Positions 1 to 63,805 of a DNA stretch of 64,000 bases are shown piece by piece. The notes under the pieces were generated by a model that worked only from the letters and a program-made list of their open reading frames with translations, was not told the origin of the DNA and did not search any database. The translations under genes and the position numbers were made by a program. The stretch is from an uncultured Pseudomonadota bacterium (GTDB taxonomy: Bacteria > Pseudomonadota > Alphaproteobacteria > RF32 > CAG-239). Each line of letters opens with the position of its first letter. Within the stretch, counting starts at the first letter, position 1. The stretch covers positions 166,671 through 230,670 of the forward strand of contig CABUUO010000002.1 of NCBI GenBank assembly GCA_902494875.1. The letters run 5' to 3'.

Positions 1-15
1 CTTCCTGCATCTGCG

Positions 16-1047: not shown

Positions 1048-1178
1048 TCTTATCTTCCCACCATTTATCTGATATTTTTATATTAGCCTATAATATATTC
1101 CTGACAATATTATTTTTTGGTAAATATATGGTTACTACCGCAAAAACAACACAAAAACCAAATTATGGATGAGAAAAA

Positions 1179-1481: not shown

Positions 1482-1545
1482 TCTTTTCCTTAAAAACCAA
1501 AAAAGAGCAGAGGTTTATCCCCTGCCCTTTCAAACAAAAAACCTG

Positions 1546-1794: not shown

Positions 1795-1811
1795 TTTATA
1801 TCTCTCTTAAG

Positions 1812-3559: not shown

Positions 3560-3570
3560 TTATTATCTCC

Positions 3571-4185: not shown

Positions 4186-4315
4186 AAAATATTTATATAA
4201 TTTTTGAAAATTATTTAAAACACAAAAACCCGAGTTATAAACACATATTTTACAACAAAGAGAAAAGAATCTTTTTACAACAAGTTAGACAACGTTTCTT
4301 GAATCTGTTTTTGAA

Positions 4316-5131: not shown

Positions 5132-5132
5132 A

Positions 5133-6554: not shown

Positions 6555-6614
6555 TCATATTGCTCCATTGTTTCAGATATAAAATATAATAAACGAGATT
6601 TAAATTTTAGTAAA

Positions 6615-7247: not shown

Positions 7248-7251
7248 CGGA

Positions 7252-9099
7252 CTACCTTTTAACATACCCGAGAACGGCGGTGATTGCCGCCGGCGTAACA
7301 CCCGGTATACGAGATGCTTCGCCGATGGTGGAAGGCCGTACCTTGGAAAGTTTGGCGATCATTTCGCGAGAGAGTCCGCCGATTTTAGAATAATCTATAT
7401 CATCTTTAATTTTAAGGTTTTCATCTTTTTTGAAAATTTCTATATCGGCCAGCTGTCGTTTAATGTAACCGGCATAGCGCGCTTCAATTTCAATAGCGTC
7501 ATAAACAACTTCGGGCATATCTTTCAGTTCCGGCCATATGCGGATAATTGTTTCACGTGAAACGTCGTCATAAGACATAAGATTGAAAACCGTACGTTTG
7601 GTACCGTCACTTTTTACTTTTATGCCGTAAGTTTCAAGATTTTTCGGGGTGGTCAAAAGTTCCTCACAAAGCCGGCGATAATATTCTATTTGGGCTTTTT
7701 TAGCTTTAAATACACTGTATCTGTATTCACCGACGCAGCCGATCTCATATCCTTTTTCGGTCAGGCGCCAATCGGCATTGTCCGCCCGTAAAAACAGACG
7801 ATATTCGGAACGAGAGGTAAACATACGATATGGTTCGTCAACACCTTTGGTTATCAGGTCATCAATCATAACGCCTATATAAGCTTCACTGCGGTCAACC
7901 GTAAAACAACGTTTTTGACCGTTTGCCGCCAAAGCTGCGTTAATACCGGCAATCAATCCCTGGGCCGCCGCTTCTTCATAGCCCGTAGTTCCGTTAATCT
8001 GTCCGGCCAGAAACAGTCCCGGAACTTTTTTGACGGCAAGACGGTTGTCCAGCTCCTGAGGATCTACATAGTCATATTCAATGGCATAGGCATATTTCAA
8101 AATTTCGACATCTTCCAAACCTTCCATGGTATGAATGAAAGCTTCCTGAACATCTGCCGGCAGAGAAGTTGAAATTCCGTTCGGATAAACGACATCGGTA
8201 TCCAGCCCTTCAGGCTCCAAAAAAATCTGATGACTGGTACGATCGGCAAATTTAACCAGTTTATCTTCAATACTCGGACAATAGCGCGGACCGATACCGG
8301 TAATCAACCCGGAAAAGAGAGCGCACTTATCGAAATTGTCACGAATAATCTTATGGGTTTGTTCATTGGTGTGCGTGATAAAACACCGAATCTGAGGATT
8401 ACTGATTTTTTCGGTAAGATAAGAAAACGGCTGTGGCGGATTGTCTCCGTCTTGTACAGCCAATTTTTCCCAATGAATGGTTTTACCGTTCAAACGGGCA
8501 GGGGTTCCGGTCTTCAGCCGTCCTACTTTCAAGCCCAAAGACTTTAAATACGGTGTTATTCCCGTACAACTGACATCATCAATACGACCGCCGACCGTGG
8601 CCTGATGACCGACAAACATTATGCCGTTCAGGAAAGTTCCCGAAGTTAATATTACAGATTTTGCAAGCAATTGAACGCCATCAGCCAAGACAACACCTTC
8701 AACTTTGTTGTCATTGACAACCAATCCTTCCACAGCTGCCTCAATAATGTCAAGATTGTCCTGAGCGCGCAAAGCCTCAAGCATATAGCGCTTATAAAGT
8801 CTGCGGTCAGCCTGGGCTCTCGGACCGCGCACAGCCGGACCTTTCGACGCGTTAAGCATACGAAACTGTATGCCGGCCTTGTCAATTACCCGTCCCATCA
8901 GGCCGTCCAAAGCGTCTATTTCACGGACAAGATGACCTTTGCCCAAGCCGCCGATGGCCGGATTGCAGGACATTGCGCCGATGGTGTCAATATGATGTGT
9001 GACCAGTGCCGTTTTGGCGCCCATACGGGCCGCCGCCGCACAGGCCTCGCATCCGGCGTGACCACCGCCAACAACAATTACGTCATAGTTTGTATTCAT
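7252..9099 (-). CDS. mnmG: tRNA uridine 5-carboxymethylaminomethyl modification enzyme MnmG (GidA).
   Basis: 615 aa. N-terminal FAD-binding motif [14 protein letters not shown]. Typical GidA length and C-terminal domain. Confidence 0.95.
7549..7564. promoter_or_regulatory. parS-like site TGTTTCACGTGAAACG (15/16 match) inside mnmG.
   Basis: One mismatch to the parS consensus. Located in the classical gidA position. Confidence 0.6.
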
Positions 9100-9351
9100 T
9101 ATATCAGAGCCTTAAATTGTGCAAATTTTTCTCTGGTATAACTTAACAAATAAAAGTTAGCAAGGATTTAATGGCGGAAGATAAATAAAACGCCGTAAAA
9201 ACAGGCGATTCAACGATGTTTTGTCAGGTATCGACACAAAAAAAAGCATTTTTTATAACAAGGACGATAAATTTACGGCAATATCAGGTATAAATATGAC
9301 TTTTGAGCAAGGTTCAAAGGACTCGGAACCATTCTGCGCCAGACATAATAT

Positions 9352-9395
9352 CCCAATAAAAAAACACTGTCAAATCAGACAATTTGACAGTGTTT
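9352..9395 (-). terminator. Rho-independent terminator for the minus-strand ORF 9419..9868: a 14-bp perfect stem (AAACACTGTCAAAT / ATTTGACAGTGTTT) with a 6-nt loop, followed on the minus strand by TTTTTTTATT.
   Basis: Inverted repeat 9362..9375 / 9382..9395. On the plus strand an A-run 9358..9364 precedes it, which reads as a T-run after the stem on the minus strand. Confidence 0.6.
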
Positions 9396-9418
9396 CCAGA
9401 TTAGATCAATTAATTTTA

Positions 9419-9868
9419 TTAAAACCAGATCCCGTTGCGAGAACAGTAATCCAGCAGCGCAACAACAGCGCTTTCGGAAAAATATTCCGGGCAGCGGTAC
9501 GCCAAAGACAAAAGCAACAAAGCTTCAAGGTAGTTGTCGTAAACTTTTCCTATTCGGAAAAGCTCGATGAAATCTTCAACGGCAGCAATATAACTGCTGC
9601 GCATAGTTTCCAACTTTTCCAACTTTGCGTCAGAGTTTTCAATCAAGAGCAAAACAGGAAAGCTCTGACTGTGGTTCTCAAAAAGGCTTACAAACTCTTT
9701 TACGTCTTCAGCCAACTGTTTCAATTTTTTCCGGTCGTAAAACAGCACCTCAAGATGATCATTGTCAAAATAGTTTTGATCCATGATGATCTCAAACAAT
9801 TCTTCTTCCGGAAGCGGTTGGAGATTTTTGGAGATCAGAAAACTGATTCCCGTACTAAGCTTTCTCAT
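9419..9868 (-). CDS. Hypothetical acidic 149-aa protein inserted between mnmG and mnmE.
   Basis: ORF with protein-like composition, followed by a strong intrinsic terminator in the correct orientation. No recognisable domain. Confidence 0.4.
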   Translation of the reverse strand: MRKLSTGISFLISKNLQPLPEEELFEIIMDQNYFDNDHLEVLFYDRKKLKQLAEDVKEFVSLFENHSQSFPVLLLIENSDAKLEKLETMRSSYIAAVEDFIELFRIGKVYDNYLEALLLLSLAYRCPEYFSESAVVALLDYCSRNGIWF

Positions 9869-10015
9869 TTTTAATAATTTTTAGTGATAGTATATAAGTA
9901 ATTAACAGCTGATATGAGCTATAACACAAGGATCTGCCAAGGTCAATAGACAAATTGACAAATAAAAAAGACGACACTTCTTAATCAAAGCGCCGTCTTT
10001 AGTGTGTAATTACGA

Positions 10016-11359
10016 TTACTTTCCGATGCAAAAATCTCCGAAAATCTTATCCAAAACCTCATCCACTTCTATGCGGCCGGTTATTTTTCCCAAAGCGCGA
10101 GCCGCCAACCTTATGTCTTCGGCGGTTAATTCAATTTCTTTGTCAAACCCGAAAGCCTGCAAATTGTCGACAACGTCCTTTAAAGCTTCTCTATAGCGGC
10201 GGCGGGTAATCAGCAAACTTGAATTAGAGGTAAAACGCTCTTTGATATTATCTCCGATTTTTTGCAAAAGCTCGTCAACACCATCTTTGTATTTGGCAGA
10301 AATGACCAGACAACCGGATTTTTTTAAATTAGAACATTGTTCGGGAGACAACTTGTCACTTTTGTTGGCAACAAACAAGGCCCTGTTTTTAAATGAATTT
10401 CTAATTTTATCAAAGACCTGAACATTGTCTAGCGATGCGTCAAACAAACAAATGACTAAATCTGCATCGTGAATTTTGGAATAGGCAATGTCGATACCCT
10501 TTTTTTCGATTTCTTCTTCAGTCTCCCGCAAACCGGCCGTATCGGTAAACATTACCGGATAACCATTTAAATCCAAATGGATATCAATGGCATCACGGGT
10601 AGTGCCGGCTATATCAGACACGATTACCGCATCTCTTTTAACAATGGCATTAAGCAAACTTGATTTTCCGGCGTTGGGCGACCCTATAATAACAACTCGA
10701 AAACCTTCACGCAGACGTTCACCTATTGAATCACCGTTCAGATGTTGATTTATCTCATCTTCAAGTTTAAATACGGTGTTTTTCATATCACTCATTACAG
10801 ACGAGGGAATATCTTCATCAGGAAAATCAATGAAGGCTTCCAAATGAGCCAAAATCTTAACCAGCCTCGTCCGCCAGTCTTCGTAAAGATTTTTCAAACC
10901 GCCTTCCATTTGACGCATGGCATATTTTTGCTGCTCGGTTGTTTCCGAATCAATCAGGTCTGCCAAACCCTCGGCTTCAGTCAAATCCATCTTGCCGTTA
11001 TAAAAAGCCCGTCTTGAATATTCTCCAGGCTCGGCCAGACGAAAATCAGGCAGCCGACTCAAGTTCTCCATCAGTGAATTTATGACGGCTTTGGAACCAT
11101 GGGTTTGAAACTCGACAATGTCCTCTCCGGTGAAAGAATAAGGTCCCTTAAAATATAAAACCAGGCTTTGATCCAATGTTTCACGTGAATCAATATCGCT
11201 GATTTTAGAAAAATAGGCATAACGCGGTTTTATTCCGGAAACGTCAATATCCGTCATTCGCGTAACGGCTTGCAAAGCCGATGGTCCGGAAATGCGGATA
11301 ACGGCGACGCCCGATTTTCCATAAACAGTGGATAAAGCATAAATGGTTTCAGCTGTCAT
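10016..11359 (-). CDS. mnmE: tRNA modification GTPase MnmE (TrmE).
   Basis: 447 aa. G-domain motifs GSPNAGKSSLLN, DTAG and NKSD. Ends with the typical C-terminal ...FCIGK. Confidence 0.95.
   Translation of the reverse strand: MTAETIYALSTVYGKSGVAVIRISGPSALQAVTRMTDIDVSGIKPRYAYFSKISDIDSRETLDQSLVLYFKGPYSFTGEDIVEFQTHGSKAVINSLMENLSRLPDFRLAEPGEYSRRAFYNGKMDLTEAEGLADLIDSETTEQQKYAMRQMEGGLKNLYEDWRTRLVKILAHLEAFIDFPDEDIPSSVMSDMKNTVFKLEDEINQHLNGDSIGERLREGFRVVIIGSPNAGKSSLLNAIVKRDAVIVSDIAGTTRDAIDIHLDLNGYPVMFTDTAGLRETEEEIEKKGIDIAYSKIHDADLVICLFDASLDNVQVFDKIRNSFKNRALFVANKSDKLSPEQCSNLKKSGCLVISAKYKDGVDELLQKIGDNIKERFTSNSSLLITRRRYREALKDVVDNLQAFGFDKEIELTAEDIRLAARALGKITGRIEVDEVLDKIFGDFCIGK
11177..11192. promoter_or_regulatory. 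parS-like site TGTTTCACGTGAATCA (15/16) inside mnmE.
   Basis: Single mismatch to the parS consensus. This is the third copy within 7 kb. Confidence 0.5.
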
Positions 11360-11671
11360 AAAATTTCTCCTTTCGCATTTTTTTTATAATAAGATTGTCA
11401 AATGAAAGCAACATTTAAAAGCGACTCTACATAAACAGCGATTTTTTGACTCAGGAGAGGGTAAGGCCTTTTTTACGACGCATTTATTATCTACCGGGCT
11501 AATTTCTTTTGTACGGGCAAATTTTGGATTTATTATTCTGCAACTTATAAGTTAAAAACAAAAAAAAATTATTTCTATTGTTGAAAAAAACAAGTTATTG
11601 ATTTTTGTCAAATTTGTGATAAACTAAAAACAACATAAAATTAAACAGATTATTATTTAAATTTAGTAATT

Positions 11672-12415
11672 ATGAAAAGATTAAAATTAAATTTTAAACT
11701 AATTGCAATTGTTGCAATTGGTTTGGCGGCATGTATTACAGGTATTTTGTTTTTTCATTTGGGATATACCATCAGCGCTTCAATCATTTGCTTTGCTTTT
11801 TATTATACGCTTGAAGATGGTGAACGCGACAGTGAAATATGCATCGGCGAAAACCAATTAAATTTATTTCCGTTGTTAATTTTTCTTCTTTTATGGCCGA
11901 TTATTGAAGTCAGCGGTATGATCTTTCTGCCTTCACTCATTATATGCCTGACGGCATATATGTTAAGGCGTCCTTTATGTGACTACATTTGGCCGGACGA
12001 ATATAATAACAACAGCTTTTTGGAAAACGTAAAATACAATATAGACGTATATGTTCTTCCCGTTTTACGTATCGTTATAGTCAGCGGCATACTTTCCGGT
12101 TGTTCTTTCTTTTTAACCCAAATCGACGAAGGTATAAAAGAAAAAACAGAAGCTAAAAAAATAGAACAGAGTGAAAAAATACGCCGGGCCACAGAACAGA
12201 AAACTACGGCGACCGTAAAAGAAATAAAAAGCGAAACGGTTAACGGCAATACGGTTTATTATGTCGTCGTAAGCAATAATATTTCACAAAAAACAGACAC
12301 CCTCAGCCTTGATACGTCTTCCGGAGCGATCTGGTTGAAAGAGGGATCCTTCGTATCTTATAATTATTCTCCGGAAAATATCGTGGAAAATTTCAGGATA
12401 ATTGAACATCCCTGA
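11672..12415 (+). CDS. Hypothetical membrane protein with 4-5 N-terminal TM helices and a hydrophilic C-terminal domain.
   Basis: 247-aa ORF convergent with rho. Followed by a strong bidirectional terminator. Confidence 0.45.
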   Translation: MKRLKLNFKLIAIVAIGLAACITGILFFHLGYTISASIICFAFYYTLEDGERDSEICIGENQLNLFPLLIFLLLWPIIEVSGMIFLPSLIICLTAYMLRRPLCDYIWPDEYNNNSFLENVKYNIDVYVLPVLRIVIVSGILSGCSFFLTQIDEGIKEKTEAKKIEQSEKIRRATEQKTTATVKEIKSETVNGNTVYYVVVSNNISQKTDTLSLDTSSGAIWLKEGSFVSYNYSPENIVENFRIIEHP

Positions 12416-12417
12416 AA

Positions 12418-12469
12418 AATTCTTAAAAAGAAAAGCTCCTTTGGTAAGGAGCTTTTCTTTTTAAGAATT
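12418..12469. terminator. Bidirectional intrinsic terminator: a perfect 24-bp-arm palindrome AATTCTTAAAAAGAAAAGCTCCTT-TGGT-AAGGAGCTTTTCTTTTTAAGAATT between the convergent ORF 11672..12415 and rho.
   Basis: Perfect inverted repeat read directly from the sequence. T-runs flank the GC core on both strands. It overlaps the rho stop codon. Confidence 0.7.
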
Positions 12470-13714
12470 CATAGTATTGAAGAAATCCTGATTGTCTTTG
12501 CTTTGTTTCAGCTTATCAAGCAGAAATTCCATACCGTCGGTCATGCCCATCTGCATCAGAACGCGGCGCAAAACCCACATCTTGGACAAAGTTGCCTTAT
12601 CAACCAACAGTTCTTCTTTGCGGGTACCGGAACGTGTGATATCAATGGTCGGGAACAGACGTTTGTCCGTCAATTTACGATCCAAAATGATTTCGGAATT
12701 ACCGGTACCTTTGAATTCTTCAAAAATAACCTCGTCCATACGGGAACCGGTATCAATCAAGGCCGTAGCAATAATGGTCAGGGAACCGCCTTCTTCAACG
12801 TTGCGGGCAGCACCCAGCAGTCTTTTGGGACGCTGCAGGGCATTAGCGTCAACACCGCCGGTCAAAACCTTGCCCGAAGAAGGGATAACGGTATTGTAAG
12901 CACGACCGAGACGCGTGATGGAATCCAGCAGGATAATGACGTCTTTTTTTGTTTCGACCAAACGTTTGGCTTTTTCAATAACCATTTCAGCAACCTGAAC
13001 ATGGCGGGCAGCCGGTTCGTCAAAAGTGGATGAAATAACTTCACCTTTGACGGAACGCGTCATGTCGGTCACTTCTTCCGGACGTTCGTCAATTAAAAGT
13101 ACCATAAGATAAGCTTCAGGATGATTGGTTGCTATCGCGTGCGCAATATTTTGCAGCATAACCGTTTTACCGGTACGCGGCGGAGCCACAATTAACCCGC
13201 GCTGACCTTTACCTTGCGGGGCGATAAGATCAATAACGCGGGTCGTATAATCTTTGTCACCGCAGATAATGTCAAAATCTAATTTTTCAGTAGGGTAAAG
13301 AGGCGTGAGGTTATCAAAGTTAATACGGAGTTTGGAAAGTTCAGGATCTTCAAAGTTTATGCGATTGACTTTCGTCAGGGCAAAATAGCGTTCGTTATCT
13401 TTCGGTGCACGTATTTCGCCTTCTACAGTATCGCCGGTGCGAAGGCCAAATTTCTTGACCTGCGAAGGCGAAACATAAATGTCATCCGGTCCGGCAAGAT
13501 AGTTTGACTGGCTGGATCGTAAAAAACCGAAGCCGTCTTGCAGAACTTCGATTGTACCTTCACCGTAAATAATGTTGTCTTCGCTGGCAACTTTTTTCAA
13601 AATGGCAAACATTAAATCTTGTTTGCGCATGGAGGAAGCATCTTCAATGCCTAAATCTTCAGCTTCAGTAAGCAGTTCTTTAGGAGATTTCTGTTTTAGA
13701 TCTTTTAAATTCAT
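12461..13714 (-). CDS. rho: Transcription termination factor Rho.
   Basis: 417 aa. Contains the N-terminal RNA-binding domain, Walker [13 protein letters not shown], and Q-loop/R-loop regions. Confidence 0.95.
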
Positions 13715-14356
13715 ATTAACCTTGAGATAGTATATTGGGAATAAGTTTAAGGGATTAAACTTTTGTTAAGCGTTATTTGTTAACTGTAATCGGTAAGTTG
13801 GAAAATTTATATTATGTTATTTCATTTTTGTCAATAAAGTTTTGACAAAACCGGGAGATGTTAATTTATCTTTTGGTATGTAAATTTCCGGTTTCTGCTG
13901 AAAGTTTTATTCACAGCCCCGCAGGGCTAACTATATAATTTTTAAAATTTAGTAGTTGATAGTGAATCCCAGTGAATCCTGTGTATTATTTTTTATACCT
14001 GATTTTATACACAGTTTAACGATTTGTTAATAAGTTTGTGAATCAAAAATCAGGCGGATTCTTTTTTTGATTCTTTTTCAAACGTCTATAGAGGCCAAAC
14101 CTTTTTTTTGTGCTTTGTTGATAAAAGTATTTATCCACGTTTATTTGAGATGTTAATTTAAGTTATTAACTTGTATATAACTTATATATATAAATTTGTT
14201 TTATGCCGATAAAATTGTATAAATACGAGCAGGGCTTCGGTTATGCACAGAAAGTTAACGAGCTGTTAATAACTAGGGTAACCTTTTGAATTGATATATT
14301 ATTTATGTCTGAAAAATGTTTTTTCAAGGGACAGGCATAATTTTAAGGTTTAAACG
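13715..14356. promoter_or_regulatory. Candidate chromosomal replication origin (Cori-like): an AT-rich 640-bp divergent intergenic region between rho and coaE.
   Basis: Five GANTC (CcrM) sites lie within 110 bp (GAATC at 13964, 13974 and 14040; GATTC at 14057 and 14069). A DnaA-box-like TTATCCACG sits at 14131..14139. TTAA-N7-TTAA (CtrA-like) motifs occur at 13755..13769 and 14255..14269. The flanking genes (rho on one side, coaE-dnaQ on the other) match the Caulobacter Cori neighbourhood. Confidence 0.45.
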
Positions 14357-14944
14357 ATGAAACTTATTGCAATTACCGGTTCGATTGGCTGCGGAAAAAC
14401 GACCATTGCCAAAATAATCAAAGCTCTTGGCTACAGCGTGTTTGATGTTGACGGTTGGGTGCGAGCCTTATATTTTCAAAAGGATTTTATTGCAACCATT
14501 GTCAAAAATTTTCCCGAGGCGGCCGATGACGGTGTGTTTAATAAAAGAAAACTGCGCAATCTGGTTTTTGACGACAACAGGGAACTGAAAAGGCTGGAGG
14601 CTTTGATACATCCGTTTTTAAAAGAGAAGCTGAAGTCGGTCATCCGTCGCAACGCGGTCTGCGACGATTTGTTTTTTTTGGATGTGGCTTTGTTGTTTGA
14701 AATGGGATGGGATAAATATTGCGATTTTATCATTGTGGCCGATGTTGCCGATGATATTCAAAAGCAGAGGGTCATGAAAAGGGACAAAGTCAGTGCCGAA
14801 CATTTTGAAAAAATCAACAGCGTGCAGATGAACAAAAGAGTCAAAGCCGACATGGCCGATGCTGTGATTGATACTGATGTTCCGCTTAATTTGCTGAAAG
14901 TGGATATTTTAAATATTATCGAAGGGTTGGAGAACAATGGTTAG
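14357..14944 (+). CDS. coaE: Dephospho-CoA kinase CoaE.
   Basis: N-terminal P-loop IAITGSIGCGKTT. Length 195 aa. Overlaps dnaQ by 8 nt. Confidence 0.85.
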   Translation: MKLIAITGSIGCGKTTIAKIIKALGYSVFDVDGWVRALYFQKDFIATIVKNFPEAADDGVFNKRKLRNLVFDDNRELKRLEALIHPFLKEKLKSVIRRNAVCDDLFFLDVALLFEMGWDKYCDFIIVADVADDIQKQRVMKRDKVSAEHFEKINSVQMNKRVKADMADAVIDTDVPLNLLKVDILNIIEGLENNG

Positions 14945-15653
14945 AGAGATTGTATTTGATACGGAAACAACCGGTTTTGACGCGCCGAAAGGCGATCGCT
15001 TGGTTGAAATCGGCGCCGTGGAATTAATTAACCATCTGCCGACCGGCAAAGTATACCACCAATATATCAATCCGCAGCGTGATGTTCCTGAAGACGCTTT
15101 TAAAGTGCATGGGCTGTCCTATGAGTTTTTGAAAGATTTTCCGACGTTTGACCAGATTGTGGACGATTGGCTGGCTTTTGTCGGCGATGACGCCGTTTTG
15201 GTTGCGCATAATGCTTCTTTTGATATTAATTTCTGCAACTATGAGCAGAAGGCGCTGAATAAACCTGAATTCAGCTGGGACCGGGTGGTTGATACGCTGG
15301 AAATTGCACGAAATATGTTTCCCGGTTCAAGAGTCAATCTTGACGCCTTGTGCAAACGTTTCGGTGTGGACAATTCAAACCGTACCAAACACGGCGCTCT
15401 GCTTGATGCCGAACTGTTGGCCGAAGTTTATCTTCAGTTAATCGGCGGGCAGGAGCCAACTATGATGTTTGAAGACAAAAAGGCGTCTTCGGCAGTTGAT
15501 CGTTTTACAGCGGAAAAAATTGAGCGCAAATTCAGAGAACCCCGCCATTATGCTCTTTCGGAAGCAGATTTGCAGGCGCATAAAGATTTTCTGGCGGCCA
15601 AGATAAAAGGGGCGTTGTGGTATGCCGGCGAGCAAGATAAACCGGCAGAGTGA
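14937..15653 (+). CDS. dnaQ: DNA polymerase III epsilon subunit (3'-5' proofreading exonuclease) DnaQ.
   Basis: Exo I motif FDTETTGF, Exo II HNASFD and Exo III HGALLDAELL. Length 238 aa. Confidence 0.9.
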   Translation: MVREIVFDTETTGFDAPKGDRLVEIGAVELINHLPTGKVYHQYINPQRDVPEDAFKVHGLSYEFLKDFPTFDQIVDDWLAFVGDDAVLVAHNASFDINFCNYEQKALNKPEFSWDRVVDTLEIARNMFPGSRVNLDALCKRFGVDNSNRTKHGALLDAELLAEVYLQLIGGQEPTMMFEDKKASSAVDRFTAEKIERKFREPRHYALSEADLQAHKDFLAAKIKGALWYAGEQDKPAE

Positions 15654-15656
15654 AAT

Positions 15657-16214
15657 TCAGTTGCGTTTGCGGCGCAAAAGGATATACAAAGCTCCGTCTC
15701 CGCCGTCTTGCGGGCGCGAATAGGAAATGCTTAAAATAAGAGGTCTCAAAATGGGATTGTTAAGCCATTGCGGGACTTTTTCTTTTAAAATGCCGCGGAT
15801 GACGAACGGGTCGTCGTCAGGGTGGGGACGACCTTTGCCGGTGACGATCAGTATACATCTCAATCCCTGCAGATAGGCGTTTTTAACAAAGTTTTCGACG
15901 GCTTCGTAGGCTCGGTCTTCTGTATATCCGTGCAAATCAAGTCGCCGTTCTATTTTGAATTCTCCGCGGCGGAAACGCTCGGCCGTTCTGCGGTCTATGT
16001 CCGGAGCGGCACCAATGTCAAGCGCGTTTAAAGAATTTCCGCTGTAAACGTGTTGCGGGTTGATGGTATTGCGGATTTCAGGCAAAACCGGCGGCGCTTT
16101 TTCTATCAACAGCGGTTGTTCTGTTTTTGTGATGTCTTTGGTCAGTTCCGACCAGAAGCTCAAATCTTCGGAACTAGGCTTTGGTTTTTCTTTCGGCATG
16201 GTCGGTTTCTTCAT
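15657..16214 (-). CDS. Smr-domain protein (MutS2-related small nuclease family).
   Basis: The C-terminal half carries LDLHGYTEDRAY...LIVTGKG, typical of Smr. Located in the conserved smr-mltA-Tim44-secB alphaproteobacterial cluster. Confidence 0.7.
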   Translation of the reverse strand: MKKPTMPKEKPKPSSEDLSFWSELTKDITKTEQPLLIEKAPPVLPEIRNTINPQHVYSGNSLNALDIGAAPDIDRRTAERFRRGEFKIERRLDLHGYTEDRAYEAVENFVKNAYLQGLRCILIVTGKGRPHPDDDPFVIRGILKEKVPQWLNNPILRPLILSISYSRPQDGGDGALYILLRRKRN

Positions 16215-19254: not shown

Positions 19255-22200
19255 ATGGATTCGTTTTTAAAGAGGTCTTTTATGTGCCGAAAGAGACTGG
19301 AAATTTTGGTTTCTTGTCTGTTCTTGTCAAGTTTTTGCTGTGGTACGGCAAAAGCTCAGACTTCCGTAGATTCATGGGATGCTCTGAAAACGGGTGTGGC
19401 AGCCGGAGAGGTGGCACTTGGAGGAGACATTCAGGCAACGGCCAATCAGCCGATCCGCGATTATCAAAACGGGGCGGTAATTCACGGCAACGGACATAAA
19501 ATTACCGGCAGCGACTATATGACGGATTCTGCCGGCGGCGGCGGATTGATCGTTTTAGACAAGGTTTCGGGAGACGGGCTGAGTCTGGACGGCGTAGATG
19601 TCAGCGGTTTTCATAATACTTCTTCGGACGATGACGCCAGCGGAACCGGCGTTATTTATGTTAAAGATTCAAATATGGGGACGATTGACGGCAAGTTTTC
19701 CGACAACAGCGTCATAAGCAGTTATGGTACTATCGGTTCGGTCGTCAGCAATGCGGGCGGAAAGATTGCCGGCATTACCGATAGTGTTTTTGAGGGAAAC
19801 AGCGTAGCAGAAAACAGTTCCGAAAAAGACGAGGTTACGTCCCGCGGTGGCGCCGTATATAACGGTGCGTCCGATGATAATGCCGGCGTTATCGGGGACA
19901 TTACCGGATCGACGTTTAAGAATAATTCGGTTACTTCCGAAAACAACGGTGCCGGCGGCGGCGCAATTTACAACTCCGCCGACAGTTCGATAGGCAATAT
20001 TGCGGCTGATTTCAGCGGCAATAAGGTTATCAGCAACGCTAATGTTGACAAGGACCGTTTTGTTGCCAACGGCGGTGCCATTTATAACAATGCTTCAAGC
20101 ATCGGAAATATTTCCGGCAATTTTACTCAAAACAGCGTGGAAGCCACCCAAAGCGGAAGTGCCGGCGGCGGTGCTATATTGAACCGCGACGGAGCGGAAA
20201 TCAAAGATGTCAGCGGCACTTTTTCCGGTAATACGGCGACCGGCAGCGGAGCATACGGCGGCGCGATTTTGTCGGCCGGTTCAAGTACGGAAGATTCTAA
20301 AATAGGCAATATTACGGCTGATTTTACACAAAACGAAGCCGTCGGTACGGAAGGGGCGTATGGCGGAGCCATTGACAACGAAGCCAAAAGCATGATAGGC
20401 ACCATAAGCGGAAAGTTCGACGGAAACGCGGCGGTTTCGGAGAAGGAATCTCTGGGCGGTGCCATTTATAACGGCGGTACGATTACCAATATCGAAAACG
20501 CAACCTTTACCGATAATAAGGCGGAAGCGACGACGGAAGGCGGACAGGCTTTGGGCGGTGCCATTTATACGGAAACGGATCTGACCATATCCGCCAATAA
20601 CGGAGATTCGTTGTTTTCGGGAAATGTGACTTATGTAAACGGCGAAAGTTTTTCCAATGCGGTTTATGTCGGAAATCAAGACGCAATATTAAGTTTGAAT
20701 GCCAAGAACGGTAATATAACGTTTGACGACGGTATTTACGGGAGCAAGGGTTATCAAGTTCAAATCGGCGGTGATGCCACCGGTTCGGTTAACTTGAATG
20801 AACAGATCGGCAATGCGGGAGAAATATCTGTTGATGACGGGGTAACGGTTAATTTTGGCGAAAAAGTGACGGTTGATACGGATTTAAACGTTAATAACGG
20901 CACGGTTAACGATGCCAGCATTGTCAACGGGGGAAAGATTTCCGTTGCAGCCGGTTCCACGGCTCATAATTTGGCGCTGTTGGCCGGTTCCGGATTTGAT
21001 TTTTCCGACGGCGCCGTTTTGACCGGCAGTATTTTGATTGACAAAGGTGCTGTTTCCGCTTCCAGCTATGACCATATTTTTGCCAATGACGTTGAAAGCA
21101 AACTGATTTTGACCGGTGGTTTTAACGAGGCCTTTACGGCATTGAAAAACGATTATGCTGACAAAAGTCTGGTATTGGCGAACGGAACTTATAATTTTTC
21201 CGGCGAAAGCGGAAAAGGACTTGAGCTTTCAGGCTGGGAATCAATAACCATCGGTTCGGACGACGGAAACGCAGCAGTCGGCAAGCTGGAAGGCAATATG
21301 AATATGCCTGATGTAACCGACAGTTTATATATTAAAAAGAACGGCACGTTTGATTTGTCCGGCAGCGGCGCCGGGGTTTTTGAGTTCGGCGGTTCGGTGG
21401 TTAACGACGGCACAATTTCTTTTCAGGACAATTCCGCCGACGATGTTACGACCATAAAAGGCAGTTATACGGCTCAAAACAATGCGCAGATGATTGTTGA
21501 CGTCGATCCGTCAGCCGGAACGTCTGATCTGCTCAAGATAGAAGGCGATGTTGTCGGGCATACGTCCGTTGTGGTTAACGCTTTGGGCAGCGGTATATCA
21601 AGAAATCAGATTTTATTTGCCGACGTGAGCGGTGACGATGAGGCAACGGCTTCTTCTTTTGACGTATACCGGGTTATGAATAATCCGTTTATGTGGAATG
21701 CGGTTTTGGAAGACAAAAAATGGTATTTTGACAAGACCAATATTGTGGTCGGTGAGGTTATCGCCTATACGGGGCTGCCCGGTGCCGGCATAGATCAAAC
21801 CAGAGGTCTGATTGACAATATTTCCGCCAATTCACATGGAACGGAAAAAACCAAAAAAGAGTGTCAGTATTATAAGGACTATTTCCGCTGCCGGAGCTAT
21901 AATACGCTTAACACTTGGGTTGCGCCGGTTTACGGCACGTCAGACGTTACGGCTCCGTTTAAGTATACGGCCGACGTTGCGGGCGTGGATGCGGGCGTGG
22001 ACGTTGACTACGGCTTTTACAACAAGTTGGGATTGTTTATGTCTTACCGCACGGGGGCGTATGATTTTGACGGAACCGGAGAAGAAATTTCTTCGGACAC
22101 GGGTTCCAGCATTGATATCAACAGCTATCTGGCCGGTTTATATTATCGGTACGAGCGCGGTTATCTGTGGACGATGTCTACGATTTTCGGCGGCGTGCAA

Positions 22201-44277: not shown

Positions 44278-45015
44278 TTAAATCATCGCCATACCGCCGT
44301 TGATGTTGATGGTCTGGCCAGTAATGTACTGAGCTTCGTCAGAGGCCAAGAAAGCAACAACATTGGCAATATCCTGAGCTTCGCCGAGTTTGCCTTCGGG
44401 AATTTTGGCCAGCAGGGCGGCCTTTACGTCTTCAGGCAGAACGTCTGTCATCGGCGTACGGATGAAGCCCGGTGCGATCGAGTTTACGGTAATGCCGCGG
44501 GAGCCGACTTCTTGAGCCAGACATTTGTTCATGGCAATCATACCGGCTTTGGAAGCGGAATAGTTGGCCTGTCCGGCGTTGCCGGTAACGCCGACAACGG
44601 AAGCGATGCCGATAATGCGTCCGAAACGGCGTTTCATCATGCCGCGGACGGCTGCTTTGGCCAGTTTGAAACCGGCAGACAGGTTAACATCCAATACCAG
44701 CTGCCAGTCTTCGTCGCTCATGCGCATAAACAGATTGTCGCGGGTCAGACCGGCATTGTTGACCAGAATGTCAATGCGGCCGAGTTTTTCTTCAACGTTG
44801 GCGACCAGATTTTTAACATCTTCGGCATTGGTCAGGTTAGCGGTGAAAACCTCTACTCTGTCGCCGAGTTCGGCTTTGAGCTTGAGCATCGGTTCTTCGC
44901 GCATATCGGTTAAGGCCAAGGTTGCGCCCTGTTTGTGCAGGGTGCGGGCAATCTTGTCGCCCAAGCCGCCGGCAGCGCCGGTGATGAGGGCTACTTTATC
45001 GTGTAATTCAAACAT
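44278..45015 (-). CDS. fabG: 3-oxoacyl-[acyl-carrier-protein] reductase FabG.
   Basis: SDR motifs TGAAGGLG, NNAG and the catalytic YSASKAG. Length 245 aa. Confidence 0.9.
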   Translation of the reverse strand: MFELHDKVALITGAAGGLGDKIARTLHKQGATLALTDMREEPMLKLKAELGDRVEVFTANLTNAEDVKNLVANVEEKLGRIDILVNNAGLTRDNLFMRMSDEDWQLVLDVNLSAGFKLAKAAVRGMMKRRFGRIIGIASVVGVTGNAGQANYSASKAGMIAMNKCLAQEVGSRGITVNSIAPGFIRTPMTDVLPEDVKAALLAKIPEGKLGEAQDIANVVAFLASDEAQYITGQTININGGMAMI

Positions 45016-45061
45016 ATTATCTCTCCTTTAACGGTCTTGTCTGATGGATAACTAAAGCTGC

Positions 45062-45120
45062 AATCCGGTGCTCGCATCCTCACGTACTTCTATGTACGCT
45101 GTGGGGCTGCGCTCCGTATG
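45062..45120. repeat. Copy of a dispersed repeat of about 58 bp (core ATCCGGTGCTCGC.TCCTCACGTAC.T.TATGTACGCTG.GGG.CTG.GCTCCGT) in the fabG-fabD intergenic spacer.
   Basis: About 85% identical to the two copies at 62303..62372 and 62417..62470. Contains the palindromic core CACGTACG. Confidence 0.6.
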
Positions 45121-45170
45121 GCAACTTTATTTCTCACATCATCCAAAACCTCTTATCGTTAAAATTGCTG

Positions 45171-46124
45171 TTAATTTTGTAAATTCTTTGCCAATTCTTC
45201 AATTTCAGCCGGTGTGCCGACGGAAACGGCATTAATTTCCTTATCGCATCTTTTGACCAGACCGGACAATACTTTTCCGGCGCCGAGTTCGACCACGTCG
45301 GTGATACCGTTGTTTTTCATATAAGCAACGCTTTCTCTCCAACGAACCGAACCGGTTACCTGTTCAATCAAGTGTTTGATAATTTCTTCTTTTTTGCTGA
45401 TTGCCGAGGCCAAAACGTTGGCAATCAACGGAATTTCGGCATCAAGAGCGTTTACTTTGCCGAGAGCCGCGGCCATAACTTCTGCGGCCGGCTGCATTAA
45501 GGGGCTGTGAAACGGCGCGCTGACAGGAAGTTTCAGGCAGCGTTTGGCTCCGAATTCAGAACCGGCAATTTCAACCGCCTTGTCAATGGCTCCCATGTGT
45601 CCGGAAATGACAATCTGTCCGTCAGAGTTGTCATTGGCGGTAACGCAGACATTGTTGCCATCGGCACAGGCTTCAGCCAGTTTTTTGACATCGTCAAAAC
45701 CCAGGCCGATGACCGCGGCCATGCCGCCGACACCCAGCGGAACGGCTTTTTGCATGGCATCGCCGCGCGTGCGCAGCAGTCTGGCCGTGTCTGACAAAGA
45801 AAAAACGCCGGCGGCGCAGGCTGCGGAATATTCGCCGAGCGAATGTCCGGCCACAAAAGCCGCTTTGTCTTTTAACTTAATGCCGAATTCTTTTTCGAGA
45901 ACTTTTACCACAGCCATAGAGTTTGCCATCAGGGCAGGCTGGGCATTGCTGGTCATGGTCAGGTCTGTTTCGGGACCTTCAACCATAATTTTGAACAAGT
46001 CTTGATTTAAGGCTTCGTTGACTTCTTCGAAAACATCCTTGGCCGATTTGAAGTTTTCGGCCAGTTCTTTTCCCATGCCGACAAATTGAGAACCTTGTCC
46101 GGGGAATACGAAAGCTCTAGTCAT
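45171..46124 (-). CDS. fabD: Malonyl-CoA:ACP transacylase FabD.
   Basis: Active-site GHSLGE. Length 317 aa. Adjacent to fabG. Confidence 0.9.
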   Translation of the reverse strand: MTRAFVFPGQGSQFVGMGKELAENFKSAKDVFEEVNEALNQDLFKIMVEGPETDLTMTSNAQPALMANSMAVVKVLEKEFGIKLKDKAAFVAGHSLGEYSAACAAGVFSLSDTARLLRTRGDAMQKAVPLGVGGMAAVIGLGFDDVKKLAEACADGNNVCVTANDNSDGQIVISGHMGAIDKAVEIAGSEFGAKRCLKLPVSAPFHSPLMQPAAEVMAAALGKVNALDAEIPLIANVLASAISKKEEIIKHLIEQVTGSVRWRESVAYMKNNGITDVVELGAGKVLSGLVKRCDKEINAVSVGTPAEIEELAKNLQN

Positions 46125-60301: not shown

Positions 60302-61207
60302 ATGGTTTGGGTCATCAACGGGTTGATATACGGCTTCTTTACGGCACTTTATACACTGGTTAACCAGCACTATAAAATGAACGGCTATCTTTTGGGCATT
60401 TGGCGCGGTTTTGGAATCTCGCTGATTTTCTTTCCTTTTCTTTATTTTAATTTTCCGTGGCCGCAGACGGCCTATCATTGGGGAATGCTGGTCCTTCAGG
60501 GATTGTGCATCGGTTATTATGATTCGCATTTGTTTTTTGCCTCGGCCAACTTCGGTGCAGGAGCGACTTCGCGGGTGATGGCGCTGACAACACTGGTGAC
60601 TTCGGTTTTTTGGTGGGCGCTGACGCCGACGGCGTTTTTGCATTTGTTTGATGACGGTTCGGTGTTTATTACGCTGATTTTGATTTTATTCGGTTTTACT
60701 GTCAGTTGCTGGTATATGTTTAAGGATACACTCTCGCGGGCAACGGTAAAATATATGATTCCGGTGATTGTTGCTCTGGCGGTTATGAGTATCATTACCA
60801 AAGAACTGGCTGTTCACGGTTCAACGGTGTGGCCGGCAATTACATATTATCTGGTTATTCCGACTTTTGTCAGCGGCTGTTATAATCTGTTTTATTATAC
60901 GACAACGGAAAAACCCGGATTTATCGGCTTTTTCAAAAATGTCTTTTCCGGGCGTGCGGCCGGGGTCGGTTTGTATATTGTTGCTTTTAGCGCAGCATTG
61001 ATCACGGCTAAAAATATTGCTTTAAGAATTGCACCTAATCCCGGGTATGTAATGTGTTTGGTTTTGACGGCGCCGATTTTCGTGTTCTTTTTGAACAAGT
61101 ACAACAAAGTTCCCGACAATGTTTCGGTTAAAGCCGGTTTTTCGATGATTTTTTTCATCGTTTTGCTGATTGTTCTGGTCAACGGAAATTTCGGCGTGGT
61201 TGACTAG
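60302..61207 (+). CDS. Hypothetical polytopic membrane protein (about 10 TM; possibly DMT/EamA-like transporter).
   Basis: 301-aa ORF of strongly hydrophobic, W/F/Y-rich helices. Confidence 0.45.
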   Translation: MVWVINGLIYGFFTALYTLVNQHYKMNGYLLGIWRGFGISLIFFPFLYFNFPWPQTAYHWGMLVLQGLCIGYYDSHLFFASANFGAGATSRVMALTTLVTSVFWWALTPTAFLHLFDDGSVFITLILILFGFTVSCWYMFKDTLSRATVKYMIPVIVALAVMSIITKELAVHGSTVWPAITYYLVIPTFVSGCYNLFYYTTTEKPGFIGFFKNVFSGRAAGVGLYIVAFSAALITAKNIALRIAPNPGYVMCLVLTAPIFVFFLNKYNKVPDNVSVKAGFSMIFFIVLLIVLVNGNFGVVD

Positions 61208-62478
61208 CAGCACAAATCTTCGATGATTTTGTTTAAGAGCAGTCGTCCGTCATCGCTTGCGCGTATGCTGTCGCCGTTGTCTTCAAGCAGTTTTTTTTGA
61301 AGCAGGATATACAGGTTTTCCTGATTGACAAAAGCGTCAAAATCCATGCCGCAGTTATGTTTGAAATTTTGGCGGCTGATGCCTCTGTTCAGGCGCAGAC
61401 CCATTAATACCAGTTCTTCCGCCCGTTCTTCCGGCGTAAGTTCTTCCATTATGCAGCGATGGGTAGAGGCAAAGATTTTTCCCTGGCTTTTGATGCGGCC
61501 GTGCGCTGCCGGGCCGATGCCGAGGTAGTCGTTTCCGGTCCAGTATATTTGGTTGTGGGCCGATTCAAAATTCGGCCGAGCGTAATTTGATATTTCATAT
61601 TGATTGTAATTGCAGGCATGCAAGAAAGCGTTGGTAAAGTCGTACATTTCCGCGGCGGCGTTTTCCTCCAACGGTTTAACGCCTTTTTTATGAAAAACCG
61701 TTCCGTCTTCAATGGTCAGCTGATACATTGACAGATGTTTAAAGCCGAAAGACGCGGCCTGTTTTATTTCTTCCTGCCATTGTTTTAAGCTTTGTGCGGG
61801 GCGGGCATAGATGAGGTCGATCGAATGGTTGTCAAACTGCTTTAAGACCTCTTCCATGGCCTGATAAGCCTGTTGCAGATTATGCGTGCGGCCGAGGAAT
61901 TTTAAATCTGCGTCGTTTAGAGCCTGAATACCAAGCGAAAGGCGATTGATGCCGGCGTTTTTCAGGTCTTGAAAAAGTTTCGGTCGGCCGCTGTTCGGAT
62001 TGGCTTCCAGCGAGATTTCGACCTGCTGCGAAAGTTTCCAGCGGCAGGCGATATGATTGATGATTTTTTCAATGTTTTGCGGAGCAATTAAGGACGGTGT
62101 GCCGCCGCCGAAAAAAATGCTGGTGACGCATTGATCTCCCGTATACTGATAATAAAAGTCAAGTTCTTTAAGATAGTCTTCAATAATTTCATCTTGCGGT
62201 ACGTCTTTTTTTACCTTGCTGAAAAAATCGCAATACGGACATTTGCTGAGGCAGTAGGGCCAGTGAATGTAAATTCCAAAGGGAAAATTCGTTTTAAGGG
62301 GAATCTTCGGCAAAAATCCGGTGCTCGCGTCCTCACGTACGTTTATGTACGCTGCGGGACTGTGCTCCGTGTTTGTTACCGTATCTTCCTTCTTAAAACG
62401 AATTTTTGAAGAGGAAGACTTCGGTAAAAATCCGGTGTTCATGTTCTCACGTACGTCTATGTACGCTGTATTTTTCAC
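61204..62478 (-). CDS. hemW: Radical-SAM heme chaperone HemW (HemN-like oxygen-independent coproporphyrinogen-III oxidase family). The 5' boundary is uncertain: the longest ORF includes two in-frame copies of the dispersed repeat, and an alternative TTG start lies near 62268.
   Basis: Radical SAM motif CLSKCPYCDF close to IYIHWPY (HemW: PLSLYIHIPWCVQKCPYCDF). HemN C-terminal domain. Confidence 0.75.
   Translation of the reverse strand: MKNTAYIDVRENMNTGFLPKSSSSKIRFKKEDTVTNTEHSPAAYINVREDASTGFLPKIPLKTNFPFGIYIHWPYCLSKCPYCDFFSKVKKDVPQDEIIEDYLKELDFYYQYTGDQCVTSIFFGGGTPSLIAPQNIEKIINHIACRWKLSQQVEISLEANPNSGRPKLFQDLKNAGINRLSLGIQALNDADLKFLGRTHNLQQAYQAMEEVLKQFDNHSIDLIYARPAQSLKQWQEEIKQAASFGFKHLSMYQLTIEDGTVFHKKGVKPLEENAAAEMYDFTNAFLHACNYNQYEISNYARPNFESAHNQIYWTGNDYLGIGPAAHGRIKSQGKIFASTHRCIMEELTPEERAEELVLMGLRLNRGISRQNFKHNCGMDFDAFVNQENLYILLQKKLLEDNGDSIRASDDGRLLLNKIIEDLCC
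62303..62372. repeat. Dispersed repeat copy B, within the 5' region of the long hemW ORF.
   Basis: CTTCGGCAAAAATCCGGTGCTCGCGTCCTCACGTACGTTTATGTACGCTGCGGGACTGTGCTCCGTG. It is related to the copies at 45062..45120 and 62417..62470 and is in frame with hemW (encoding ...AYINVREDASTGFLPK...). Confidence 0.6.
62417..62470. repeat. Dispersed repeat copy C (3'-truncated), tandem to copy B.
   Basis: CTTCGGTAAAAATCCGGTGTTCATGTTCTCACGTACGTCTATGTACGCTGTA. Encodes ...AYIDVRENMNTGFLPK... in the hemW frame. Confidence 0.55.
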
Positions 62479-62497
62479 GCCGTCTTCTTTCCGGAAA

Positions 62498-63805
62498 CTA
62501 TAAGATAAATTTGGACAGGTCGGTTGCCTGCGTGAATTTCATCAGTTTTTGCTCAACGAATTCGGCGGTAATAACTTCTTTCTGGCCGCTGCGGTCAGAA
62601 GCGTTGAAGCTGATGTCTTCCAGCAGAATTTCCATGACCGTATGCAATCTGCGGGCGCCGATGTTTTCGACATTTTCGTTGATTTCGACCGCAATGTCGG
62701 CAATCTTGTCGATAGCGGCCTTTTCAAATTCGATGTCAAAATTTTCGGTTTTGAGCAAGGCTGTATATTGTTCAATCAGATTGGCTTCGGGTTCAGTCAA
62801 TATCCGCACAAAATCTTCATGCGTCAGGGCTTTTAACTCAACGCGAATCGGCAGTCTTCCCTGTAGTTCCGGCAAAAGATCCGAGGGCTTGGCCAAATGA
62901 AAGGCACCCGAGCAGATAAACAGTATGTGGTCGGTTTTGACCATACCGTATTTGGTGGTGACGGTGGTGCCTTCAATCAGCGGCAGCAAGTCACGCTGAA
63001 CGCCTTCTCGAGAGACGTCGCCGCGGGTGTTTTCAGATTTGCCGGTGATTTTATCAATCTCGTCAATAAAGACGATACCGTCGTTTTCGACCGCTTCAAT
63101 GGCCGCTTTGACAATCTGGTCGTTGTCCAGGAGTTTGTCGCTTTCTTCGGCGATCAGGATGTCGTAAGCTTCGCCGACTTTCATTTTTTTGGTTTTATAT
63201 TTGGTTCCGGAAGCGCCAAGCAGGTCTCCGAGGCTGATCATTCCCATTTGGGCGCCGGGCATGCCGGGAATGTCTATGGTCGGCATTGAGGCGTTGGAAT
63301 TGTCCAGTACGCTGATTTCTATTTCCTTGTCATTCAGCTGGTTCTCCCGCAGAAGTTTGCGAAACTTTTGTTTGGTTTCGTCACTGGCGTTCAAGCCGAC
63401 CAAAGCTTCCAAGACGCGTTCTTCCGCCGCAAGTTCGGCTTTGGCGGTAACGCTTTTGCGCATTTCCTTGCGGGTATTGTTCAAAGCAATTTCAACCAAA
63501 TCGCGGATGATGCTTTCGACGTCTCTTCCGACATAACCGATTTCGGTAAATTTGGTGGCTTCCACCTTTACAAAAGGCGCTTTGGCAAGTTTTGCCAACC
63601 GGCGCGAAATTTCGGTTTTTCCGACGCCGGTCGGTCCTACCATCAGAATGTTTTTGGGGACGATTTCTTCCCGCAGATGCGCATCAAGCTGCATTCGCCG
63701 CCAGCGATTGCGCAAAGCGACGGCCACGGCCTTTTTGGCTTCGTTTTGGCCAATGATATACCTATCCAGTTCGGAAACAATTTCGCGAGGACTATAAACT
63801 GCCAT
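62498..63805 (-). CDS. hslU: ATP-dependent protease ATPase subunit HslU.
   Basis: N-terminal [17 protein letters not shown]. Walker A GPTGVGKT. Length 435 aa. Confidence 0.95.

Follow-up and report, generated by a model that had tools for sequence, protein, structure and literature searches.

Tandem RPE-1-type palindromes at the hemW start of an uncultured alphaproteobacterium from the gut, and a hairpin tip found in several phyla

The interval between hslU and hemW, close to the end of a 64-kb stretch of DNA from an uncultured alphaproteobacterium (the whole stretch is referred to here as the window), is occupied by repeated palindromic DNA, and the question arises as to what these repeats are, whether they are translated as part of HemW, and how they came to lie there. 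An earlier note, prepared from the sequence alone, had described them as two tandem copies of a dispersed repeat that behaves like the Rickettsia palindromic elements (RPEs). RPEs are selfish palindromes within genes of the obligate intracellular Rickettsia and have been a textbook oddity for 25 years. RPE-1 is the Rickettsia palindromic element reportedly described by Ogata et al. in 2000, and we know of neither a movement mechanism of RPEs nor a tractable host. The present analysis indicates that the feature at hemW is most probably a short tandem array of an RPE-1-family palindrome, composed of one intact and one internally deleted unit, and that it represents non-coding, hairpin-forming, selfish DNA.

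The repeats of the window and their relation to RPE-1

Three copies of a palindromic element, all in the same orientation, were identified at two loci within the window, namely, copy A between fabD and fabG, and copies B and C in tandem at hemW. They have in common the plus-strand core TCACGTACNTNTATGTACGCTG, located by pattern search at 45080-45101 in copy A (TCACGTACTTCTATGTACGCTG), 62333-62354 in copy B, and 62447-62468 in copy C. The claims that the three copies resemble each other and that two of them are arranged in tandem at hemW stood up to alignment: identity was 89% between copies A and B (56 nt) and 88% between copies B and C (50 nt), and a degenerate 40-nt pattern matched copies A, B, and C alone in the window, with 0 matches in 100 shuffles. 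No fourth copy was detected in the 64 kb by blastn-short and nhmmer; further copies exist in relatives and far beyond.

The unit of 58-70 bp given in the earlier note proved to be an underestimate. The element unit is an imperfect, hairpin-forming palindrome of 111-149 bp. Copy B, which adjoins hemW (62284-62406, minus strand), is a full-length palindrome of 123 bp that ends in the terminal inverted repeats AAAATTCGTTTTAAGG / CCTTAAAACGAATTTT, whereas the palindrome proper of copy A (45027-45164, minus strand) measures 138 bp and has TTAA at both ends (45028-45031 and 45159-45162); both are within the ~100-150 bp expected of RPE-1. Copy C (62407-62497, minus strand), previously taken for a shorter copy, was found by alignment to be a full-length unit that lacks 15 nt of the inner right arm. 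The same deletion and flank are also found in L101 and L140 (loci from other genomes are given here by L and P numbers), to whose distal copies copy C is orthologous. The truncated end copy of the array had been considered as a clue to the integration mechanism, an idea that was dropped since the truncation in the window and in L101 is this inherited internal deletion. The period from copy B to copy C is 114 bp. Copy C directly follows the stop codon of hslU (62498-63805, minus strand), and the 230-bp hslU-hemW interval consists of element DNA throughout, contributed by copies B and C. The palindromic core and hairpin noted initially are real: on the gene strand, copies A, B, and C fold with z values of -3.7 to -4.2 relative to shuffles (about -4 for copy A), the complementary strand also folds far better than shuffles, and the element forms an imperfect hairpin of ~50 bp.

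The resemblance to RPEs goes further than the analogy drawn in the earlier note and extends to sequence homology. The minus-strand peptide read through copies C and B (KNTAYIDVRENMNTGFLPK..TEHSPAAYINVREDASTGFLPK) matched the NCBIfam model TIGR01045, "palindromic element RPE1 domain" (cutoff, 30 bits), in two stretches with 50.7 bits and an E value of 1.3e-13. With the full hemW open reading frame (ORF), this hidden Markov model (HMM) gave 43.7 bits at residues 30-65, which are encoded by copy B; the copy A peptide reached 28.7 bits, slightly below the cutoff, and a Rickettsia tamurae element, retrieved independently, scored 88 bits. A Pfam search of the repeat-encoded peptide produced no match. 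At the DNA level, copy B and the Rickettsia copies are 70-76% identical over the central 74 nt and ~88% identical over the inner 57 nt, which correspond to the inner arms and the apex (ATCCGGTGCTCG..TCC-core-.GG..CTGTGCTCCGTGT), the outer arms being unrelated. The score with the RPE1 model and the inner identity of ~88% show that the window repeats are true RPE-1 homologues in a host outside the Rickettsiales.

Apart from passing the RPE1 peptide HMM and sharing inner arms and apex, the two types of element are alike in being imperfect palindromes of 110-150 bp with a stop-free frame (..TAAYIDVREDASTG..) and in occupying intergenic sites as well as sites in phase with ORFs; a transposase is known for neither. 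They differ in that the host of the window element belongs to a free-living or gut alphaproteobacterial lineage of metagenome-assembled genomes (MAGs) and not to the Rickettsiales, in that the outer arms and termini are unrelated, and in that the window element occurs in tandem arrays with a 114-bp period. Furthermore, the window array lies at the extreme 5' end of a gene, to which it probably donates the start codon, whereas RPE-1 of Rickettsia lies in a surface loop. Among the matches listed from the scan described below, the closest genomes were MAGs of uncultured gut Alphaproteobacteria (L101, L105). The literature treats RPEs as a peculiarity of Rickettsia and mentions related elements in Wolbachia (PMC3767692); the restriction of RPE-1 to Rickettsia does not hold for the window copies, which widens the host range and does not exclude homology. 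No report of RPE-1 outside Rickettsia was found in the literature searched, an absence that is no proof, and a literature text search for the core sequence retrieved nothing relevant. Rfam searches with the whole window (at the gathering threshold) and with the element (E<=10) gave only chance matches to microRNA-like hairpins.

Copy A offers a comparison of filled and empty sites. In the close relatives L146 and L148, the sequence from fabD to fabG reads ..AAGAATTTA (AATTTA) TAA AGGAGATTAAC ATG, with an 11-nt spacer; their FabG proteins are 94-96% identical to that of the window, and the 5' DNA of fabG is identical. In the window, the fabD stop and the Shine-Dalgarno (SD) sequence of fabG are separated by an additional 149 bases (45031-45179), with the RPE1-sense strand being the minus, or gene, strand. 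The SD (45020-45025), which adjoins the end of copy A, and the ATG of fabG (44278-45015, minus strand) are intact, and fabD (45171-46124, minus strand) runs two codons (Q N) into the inserted DNA because the old stop TAA is CAA in the window. The more distant relatives L141-L145 and L147 are also empty at this site. Copy A is a discrete 149-bp insertion relative to the close relatives, and the TTAA at both ends of its palindrome may be part of the element.

Initiation of hemW and history of the array

The longest hemW ORF (61204-62478, minus strand; 424 amino acids [aa], GTG start) is open through copies C and B, as the earlier note had stated, and the peptide encoded across C and then B reads ..AYIDVRENMNTGFLPK..AAYINVREDASTGFLPK.. 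in frame with HemW. The protein matched TIGR00539 with 294.4 bits (cutoff, 205.4), ORF residues 69-414 corresponding to model positions 3-360; the alignment begins at I69, and the conserved HemW body (IYIHWPYC.. to the stop) occupies 61204-62274 on the minus strand. The TTG near 62268 that had been put forward as an alternative start is out of frame (T TTG GAA). From the apex to the HemW core, the sole in-frame start codon is the TTG at 62313-62311 (minus strand; context GGA TTT TTG CCG AAG), located in the hemW-proximal end of copy B (MPKIPLKTNFPFGIYIHW..); the frame contains no further ATG, GTG, or TTG from 62311 to the IYIHW codons. This TTG is present in all five proximal copies of related lineages, and TTA is found in all four in-frame distal copies. 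Sister subfamilies have TTG or ATG at a nearby homologous codon, the ATG lying within the element terminal repeat TTAACGGTCAT. HemW orthologues free of RPEs begin 3-17 residues ahead of FGIYIHW.

The persistence of the element at gene boundaries might be explained by a stop-free frame on one strand (..TAAYIDVREDASTG..), by a gene-proximal end that would contribute a start codon in the frame of the gene (TTG in the window, but either ATG or TTG in the sister subfamilies), and by a period that is a multiple of three. In view of this built-in frame, start codon, and period, the TTG at 62313-62311 is the likeliest start, and hemW may well initiate there. The remainder of the array would form a structured intercistronic leader, co-transcribed with hslU, and this leader, as a long double-stranded RNA, would probably be a target for RNase III-type processing.

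An alternative that appears possible but doubtful is that one or both of the repeats are translated, HemW then carrying an N-terminal extension of 55-66 residues that consists of one or two RPE-1 peptides and results from in-frame insertion on a tolerant terminus. RPE-1 is reported to occur inside Rickettsia proteins. The frame that starts with the GTG at 62478 is open through both copies and in phase with hemW, the spacing of in-phase copies in relatives is always 114 or 120 nt, and in L023 an ATG overlaps the hslU stop (TGATG), with the frame open across the copy. Many clusters at 90% identity have constant extended lengths (411, 449, and 547 aa), and an extension should be tolerated given that the native N-termini are short and variable. 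However, the substitutions that separate the window from L101 speak against coding: hslU has 53 synonymous and 2 non-synonymous changes (10/2/47 at codon positions 1/2/3) and the hemW body 30 and 21 (14/11/35), but the 38 codons from the proximal copy to G68, upstream of GIYIHW, have 0 synonymous and 6 non-synonymous changes (4/1/1). This pattern indicates that the repeat-encoded peptide is not conserved as a protein and is without purifying selection at the protein level. Furthermore, frames are broken in the third copy of L101, which is shifted by a 1-nt deletion, and in L130, where both a frameshift and a stop lie upstream of the copy; the copy number ranges from 0 to 4, and distal copies decay (L121). 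The in-frame placement across lineages was rejected as statistical support for coding because the junction, with the apex at -71, is identical and shared by descent, so that all in-phase placements amount to one event. Since the element brings its own open frame, gene callers merely pick the long ORF.

With regard to the non-coding array preferred here, the copy number at the hemW site differs largely among relatives. No copy is present in P0010, P0013, P0016, and others, a single one in P0004, P0005, P0007, and L023, two in the window, P0001-3, and L056, and three to four in P0011, P0017, and L101; in L101, the four copies follow each other with periods of 114, 113, and 114. The N-termini of RPE-free HemW proteins read MSDFGIYIHW, MAFYQGFGIYIHW, and MNAETLPDLSHQDNSVKFGIYIHW. 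Across three subfamilies, the proximal apex lies upstream of the P-F-G codons at a distance of 71 nt in every case, and this constant distance points to one old, ancestral insertion that was inherited vertically, after which the copies diverged, were exchanged unequally, and were occasionally lost. Between two hemW alleles that are nearly identical, the empty L120 and L121 with its two copies, homology begins only at TTCGGTATTTAT (F-G-I-Y); the filled allele lacks the native ATG as well as the first six hemW codons. The insertion thus appears to have replaced the native start region of hemW, and the array has since expanded and contracted in 114-bp steps between 0 and 4 units, presumably because units recombine unequally or slip during replication. 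Decay is seen in the distal copy of L121. At the hemW start of L120 (757-790), GTAACGGACAAATGG is similar to the sequence TTAACGG(A/T)(A/C)CA..ATG that forms the terminal repeat in sister elements, and L120 may represent the footprint of array loss, in which case its ATG would be element derived.

A hairpin tip beyond the Rickettsiales

A scan for the 22-nt core, in which 20 bases were specified and one genome per species was used, covered both strands of 596 Gb, for which ~1 chance match was estimated. The exact core was found at >119 loci across several phyla, nearly all in a hairpin context. Among the matches listed, in which the core is invariant by construction of the scan, the hosts were Rickettsia and Tisiphia, Caedibacter and Caedimonas, numerous MAGs of gut alphaproteobacteria, the genera Brucella, Ochrobactrum, Pseudochrobactrum, and Mesorhizobium, one betaproteobacterium, members of the Lysobacterales, Solimonas, and Alteromonas, as well as Desulfosudaceae, Bdellovibrionales, three Paenibacillus species, and a Terriglobales MAG.

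From lineage to lineage the arms bear no relation to each other, but within an element they are complementary. The median number of inter-arm pairs in 64 representatives whose arms are <70% identical was 31, compared to 12 after shuffling (median z = -4.8), and the pair flanking the core covaries (CG in 54 and GC in 30). Diverged copies, for which up to 5 mismatches were allowed, show compensatory changes in the apex stem, namely, from C4:G19 to T:A in 14 cases, from G5:C18 to C:G or A:T in 5, and from C8:G15 to G:C in 2, next to ~12 one-sided changes. One bulged T, one bulged C, and a T.C mismatch make the tip asymmetric. In 80% of the elements, folding favours the RPE1-sense strand over its complement, by a mean of 4.2 kcal/mol (p = 3e-14), and in 72% when de-replicated arms alone are considered (p = 3e-4). 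Arm pairing, covariation, and this strand bias in folding argue that selection acts on the folded single strand. The part conserved across phyla would be the tip and not the ends, which is the reverse of what is seen in MITEs (miniature inverted-repeat transposable elements), REP/REPINs, and attC sites. Spread of the family would depend on recognition of this asymmetric tip in a folded single strand by a trans-acting factor, for which the arms need only pair.

An all-against-all BLASTP of 1,625 ORFs from the 8-kb flanks of the 119 listed loci revealed no recurrent transposase-like family. At these loci, orientation relative to the flanking genes is without bias (46 same, 44 opposite), and convergent contexts exceed divergent ones by 30 to 9. 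The strand with TCACGTAC..GTACGCTG is on the locally G-rich strand in 79% of 169 elements (L001-L119 and the window; p ~ 1e-7 per locus), an effect confounded by gene-strand bias, since the proportion is 94% with the genes on that strand and 42% with the genes opposed to it. Apex cores decay at some orthologous sites, as in the P0036 type and the distal copy of L121. Phage carriage was limited to 1 match in 2.9 million viral contigs.

In several loci of other gut alphaproteobacteria, 3-7 units follow each other in an array, at a period of 117-127 nt (L088, 2900-3540; L004, 6620-6880; L038, 617-976; L095, 7003-7346); in L088, two arm subfamilies alternate. Arrays of this kind give rise to long spurious ORFs, such as one of 278 aa in L088. 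In L005 (3950-4830), a gene for a DUF559 protein, a Vsr-like endonuclease, is inserted in an RPE-like copy after GGTGACTAA, and both of its flanks carry GC-rich tandem palindromic repeats of ~36 nt (..CCCTCCCCCGTAAGAGGGGGAGGGG..). In Candidatus Scatocola (P0032, P0062), DUF559 lies directly upstream of RPE copies and hemW, where fused ORFs of 547-589 aa are annotated as HemW. The DUF559 endonuclease was considered as a general mobiliser and rejected, as it is adjacent only in L005 and at the Scatocola hemW locus, corresponding to 1 of the 119 listed loci by tblastn.

Links emerge between this hairpin and RNAs or repeats that have been described under other names. Two copies in L025, a Lysobacterales MAG (7597-7678 and 7753-7834), matched the Rfam family sX9 (RF02228; gathering threshold, 44 bits) with 45.1 and 33 bits, respectively, over half of each element, whereas window positions 62250-62520 gave no sX9 match at E<=10. 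The sX9 consensus AUGUACCACU.CGUACACUCCGGUUCCUCCGCGCCG.. corresponds to the apex, in a compensated C4>U / G19>A variant, and the right arm of the Lysobacterales members. It differs in covering half an element only, in lying on the strand opposite to the RPE1 frame, and in having been described as a single small RNA (sRNA) gene. The sX9 RNA begins inside the apex, which suggests that this "sRNA" may be a processed fragment of the repeat. sX9 is a 75-nt Xanthomonas RNA verified by Northern blotting (PMC3300014) and is among the most often annotated "sRNAs" (PMC9029176), as would be expected if it is a repeat.

Another example is Alteromonas sp. D210916BOD_24, in which both sampled 23S rRNA genes (L084, L102) contain a ~160-nt hairpin in helix 25 with the apex CAGCGTACATAAAAGTACGTGA at its tip; in L084, it occupies 5140-5300 within the 23S rRNA gene at 4588-7637. 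The insert is an rRNA intervening sequence of the RPE-1-type hairpin family. Intervening sequences of 23S rRNA, found in helices 25, 45, and 9 and removed by RNase III, are like RPEs long extra hairpins tolerated at surface positions, whereas the window copies lie in mRNA leaders and not in rRNA.

The names Bru-RS1 and Bru-RS2 denote palindromic repeats of Brucella, reportedly described by Halling and Bricker in 1994. The matches in Brucella, Ochrobactrum, and Pseudochrobactrum (L019, L032, L052, L078, L108) are ~105-bp palindromes with the identical apex and may be Bru-RS, whose reported length of 103-106 bp (PMC10800456) they match. Their arms (..CTGCGCTTCCGGTGC / CGCTCCGGTTCTCG..) are unlike those of the window type, and a Brucella-type copy gave no Rfam match at E<=5. 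In Paenibacillus (L008, L014 at 2542-2563, L067), a single conserved copy with identical apex lies between a gene for a CoA-binding protein and ptsI, at the same locus in three species, and gives the impression of a fixed 5' leader more than of a dispersed repeat. The REP/REPIN-RAYT, ERIC, Correia, and other palindromic repeats of bacteria are likewise short and non-coding, form hairpins, and occur in multiple copies, often between cistrons, where they can influence the processing of mRNA. However, they have their recognition sequence at the base or ends and are each confined to a genus or family, whereas the window-type family shows cross-phylum conservation of its tip and has no RAYT-like gene close by; membership in REP/REPIN is not supported, as there is no recurrent ORF family in the 119 flanks of 8 kb.

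A tentative proposal, to which we assign somewhat less than an even chance, is that RPE-1 is only the Rickettsia branch of a cross-phylum hairpin family, the tip being a cis module read in the folded single strand by a propagating or processing machinery that is possibly host encoded. The tip of such a family would comprise ~27 nt, with a bulged T, an S:S pair, a T.C mismatch, CA:TG, a bulged C, the 5-bp stem CGTAC/GTACG, and a loop NTNTAT, and the arms would be free as long as they pair. The proposed members are the Xanthomonas sX9-type RNAs, the Alteromonas helix-25 intervening sequence, the ~105-bp palindromes of Brucella and Ochrobactrum (probably Bru-RS), and the Paenibacillus single copies.

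Function, origin, and significance

A function for the host is a less likely reading of the window copies than a selfish one. It was considered, and is regarded as unlikely, that they are host-selected cis-regulatory RNA hairpins in operon transcripts, acting as an RNase III or processing site, a stabiliser, or a translation gate that uncouples hslU from hemW and fabD from fabG. Copies A, B, and C all lie between co-directional genes, with the better-folding strand being the mRNA sense, and the RPE1-sense strand folds better in 72-80% of the elements; the Alteromonas helix-25 intervening sequence is a family member, the Northern-verified 75-nt sX9 RNA of Xanthomonas (PMC3300014) matches half an element and starts within the apex, and the hemW copy persists across genera. 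On the other hand, copy A is missing from close relatives and the hemW copies from many lineages, orientation to the flanking genes at the listed loci is close to 50/50 (46 same, 44 opposite), and apex cores decay at orthologous sites (P0036 type, L121 distal copy). The gene strand also has no promoter- or terminator-like signal; a search for intrinsic terminators found no minus-strand site at either window locus, and a function as promoter or terminator was rejected.

It is rather improbable that the element is a classical MITE, that is, a deletion derivative of an insertion sequence (IS) moved by a DDE transposase that acts on the terminal inverted repeats. The terminal inverted repeats, a possible TA or TTAA at the ends of copy A, the size of 110-150 bp, and the filled/empty polymorphism are compatible with this origin, but across lineages the ends are the most variable and the centre is the most conserved part, opposite to what end-recognising transposases would impose, no parent IS or transposase ORF recurs near the 119 listed loci, and the target-site duplication at copy A is not clean. 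The element thus has neither the conserved ends matching a parent IS nor the fixed target-site duplication of a MITE. That the similarity is due to chance or low complexity, without a real repeat family, has a negligible probability, given 3 observed matches versus 0 in shuffles, a 20-base pattern expected ~1 time in 596 Gb (both strands), and its presence at >119 loci, nearly all in a hairpin context.

Several observations weigh against the selfish, non-coding array with a TTG start that is favoured here. No transposase or recurrent gene lies within 8 kb of the 119 listed loci, and mobility is for this reason deduced from filled and empty sites only; the window itself contains only 3 copies in its 64 kb, and the target-site duplication of copy A is ambiguous, being either TA with one substitution or absent. 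The TTG at 62313-62311 has no good SD, and the SD of the native hemW start in L120 is also weak. In abundant clusters (P0036, P0031, and the Scatocola forms of 547 aa), the N-terminal extensions that gene callers predict contain RPEs and are constant in length. Finally, the "empty" hemW allele L120 may itself be a deletion derivative, and its GTAACGGACAAATGG looks like an element end.

Three further features were observed elsewhere in the window. Within 1-16000, the GC skew changes from negative to positive at ~10-12 kb, and the cumulative skew then climbs to the end of the window; this switch may be a replication origin, which would place hslVU-hemW and fabD-fabG on the lagging strand. A perfect 16-bp palindrome, TGTTTCACGTGAAACA (family D10), occurs in three copies in similar contexts (4136-4163, 7541-7568, and 11169-11196) and may be the binding site of a regulator near the skew switch. 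At 19949-20191, the GC-rich motif GTGCCGGCGGCGGCGCAATTTACAAC.. recurs at ~100-nt spacings (family D4), which probably reflects a repetitive protein-coding region.

The window, as read from these comparisons, adds a gut alphaproteobacterium to the host clades of the RPE-1 family and provides a single clean polymorphism of filled and empty sites, together with an array of variable copy number at the start of an essential-pathway gene. For annotation, it is a warning that N-terminal extensions and fused ORFs, such as the 424-aa HemW and the 547-aa DUF559-RPE-HemW, are likely artefacts of the element's open frame. The conservation of an asymmetric tip across phyla, to the base in Alpha-, Beta-, Gamma-, and Deltaproteobacteria, Bdellovibrionales, Paenibacillus, and Terriglobales, with arms that covary, is the most interesting by-product of this study and deserves independent verification. 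If the proposed family is real, RPE recognition would become testable in culturable, genetically tractable hosts such as Ochrobactrum/Brucella, Mesorhizobium, Alteromonas, and Paenibacillus, and three phenomena that have been described separately, namely, RPEs, an rRNA intervening sequence, and an "sRNA" family, would be joined.

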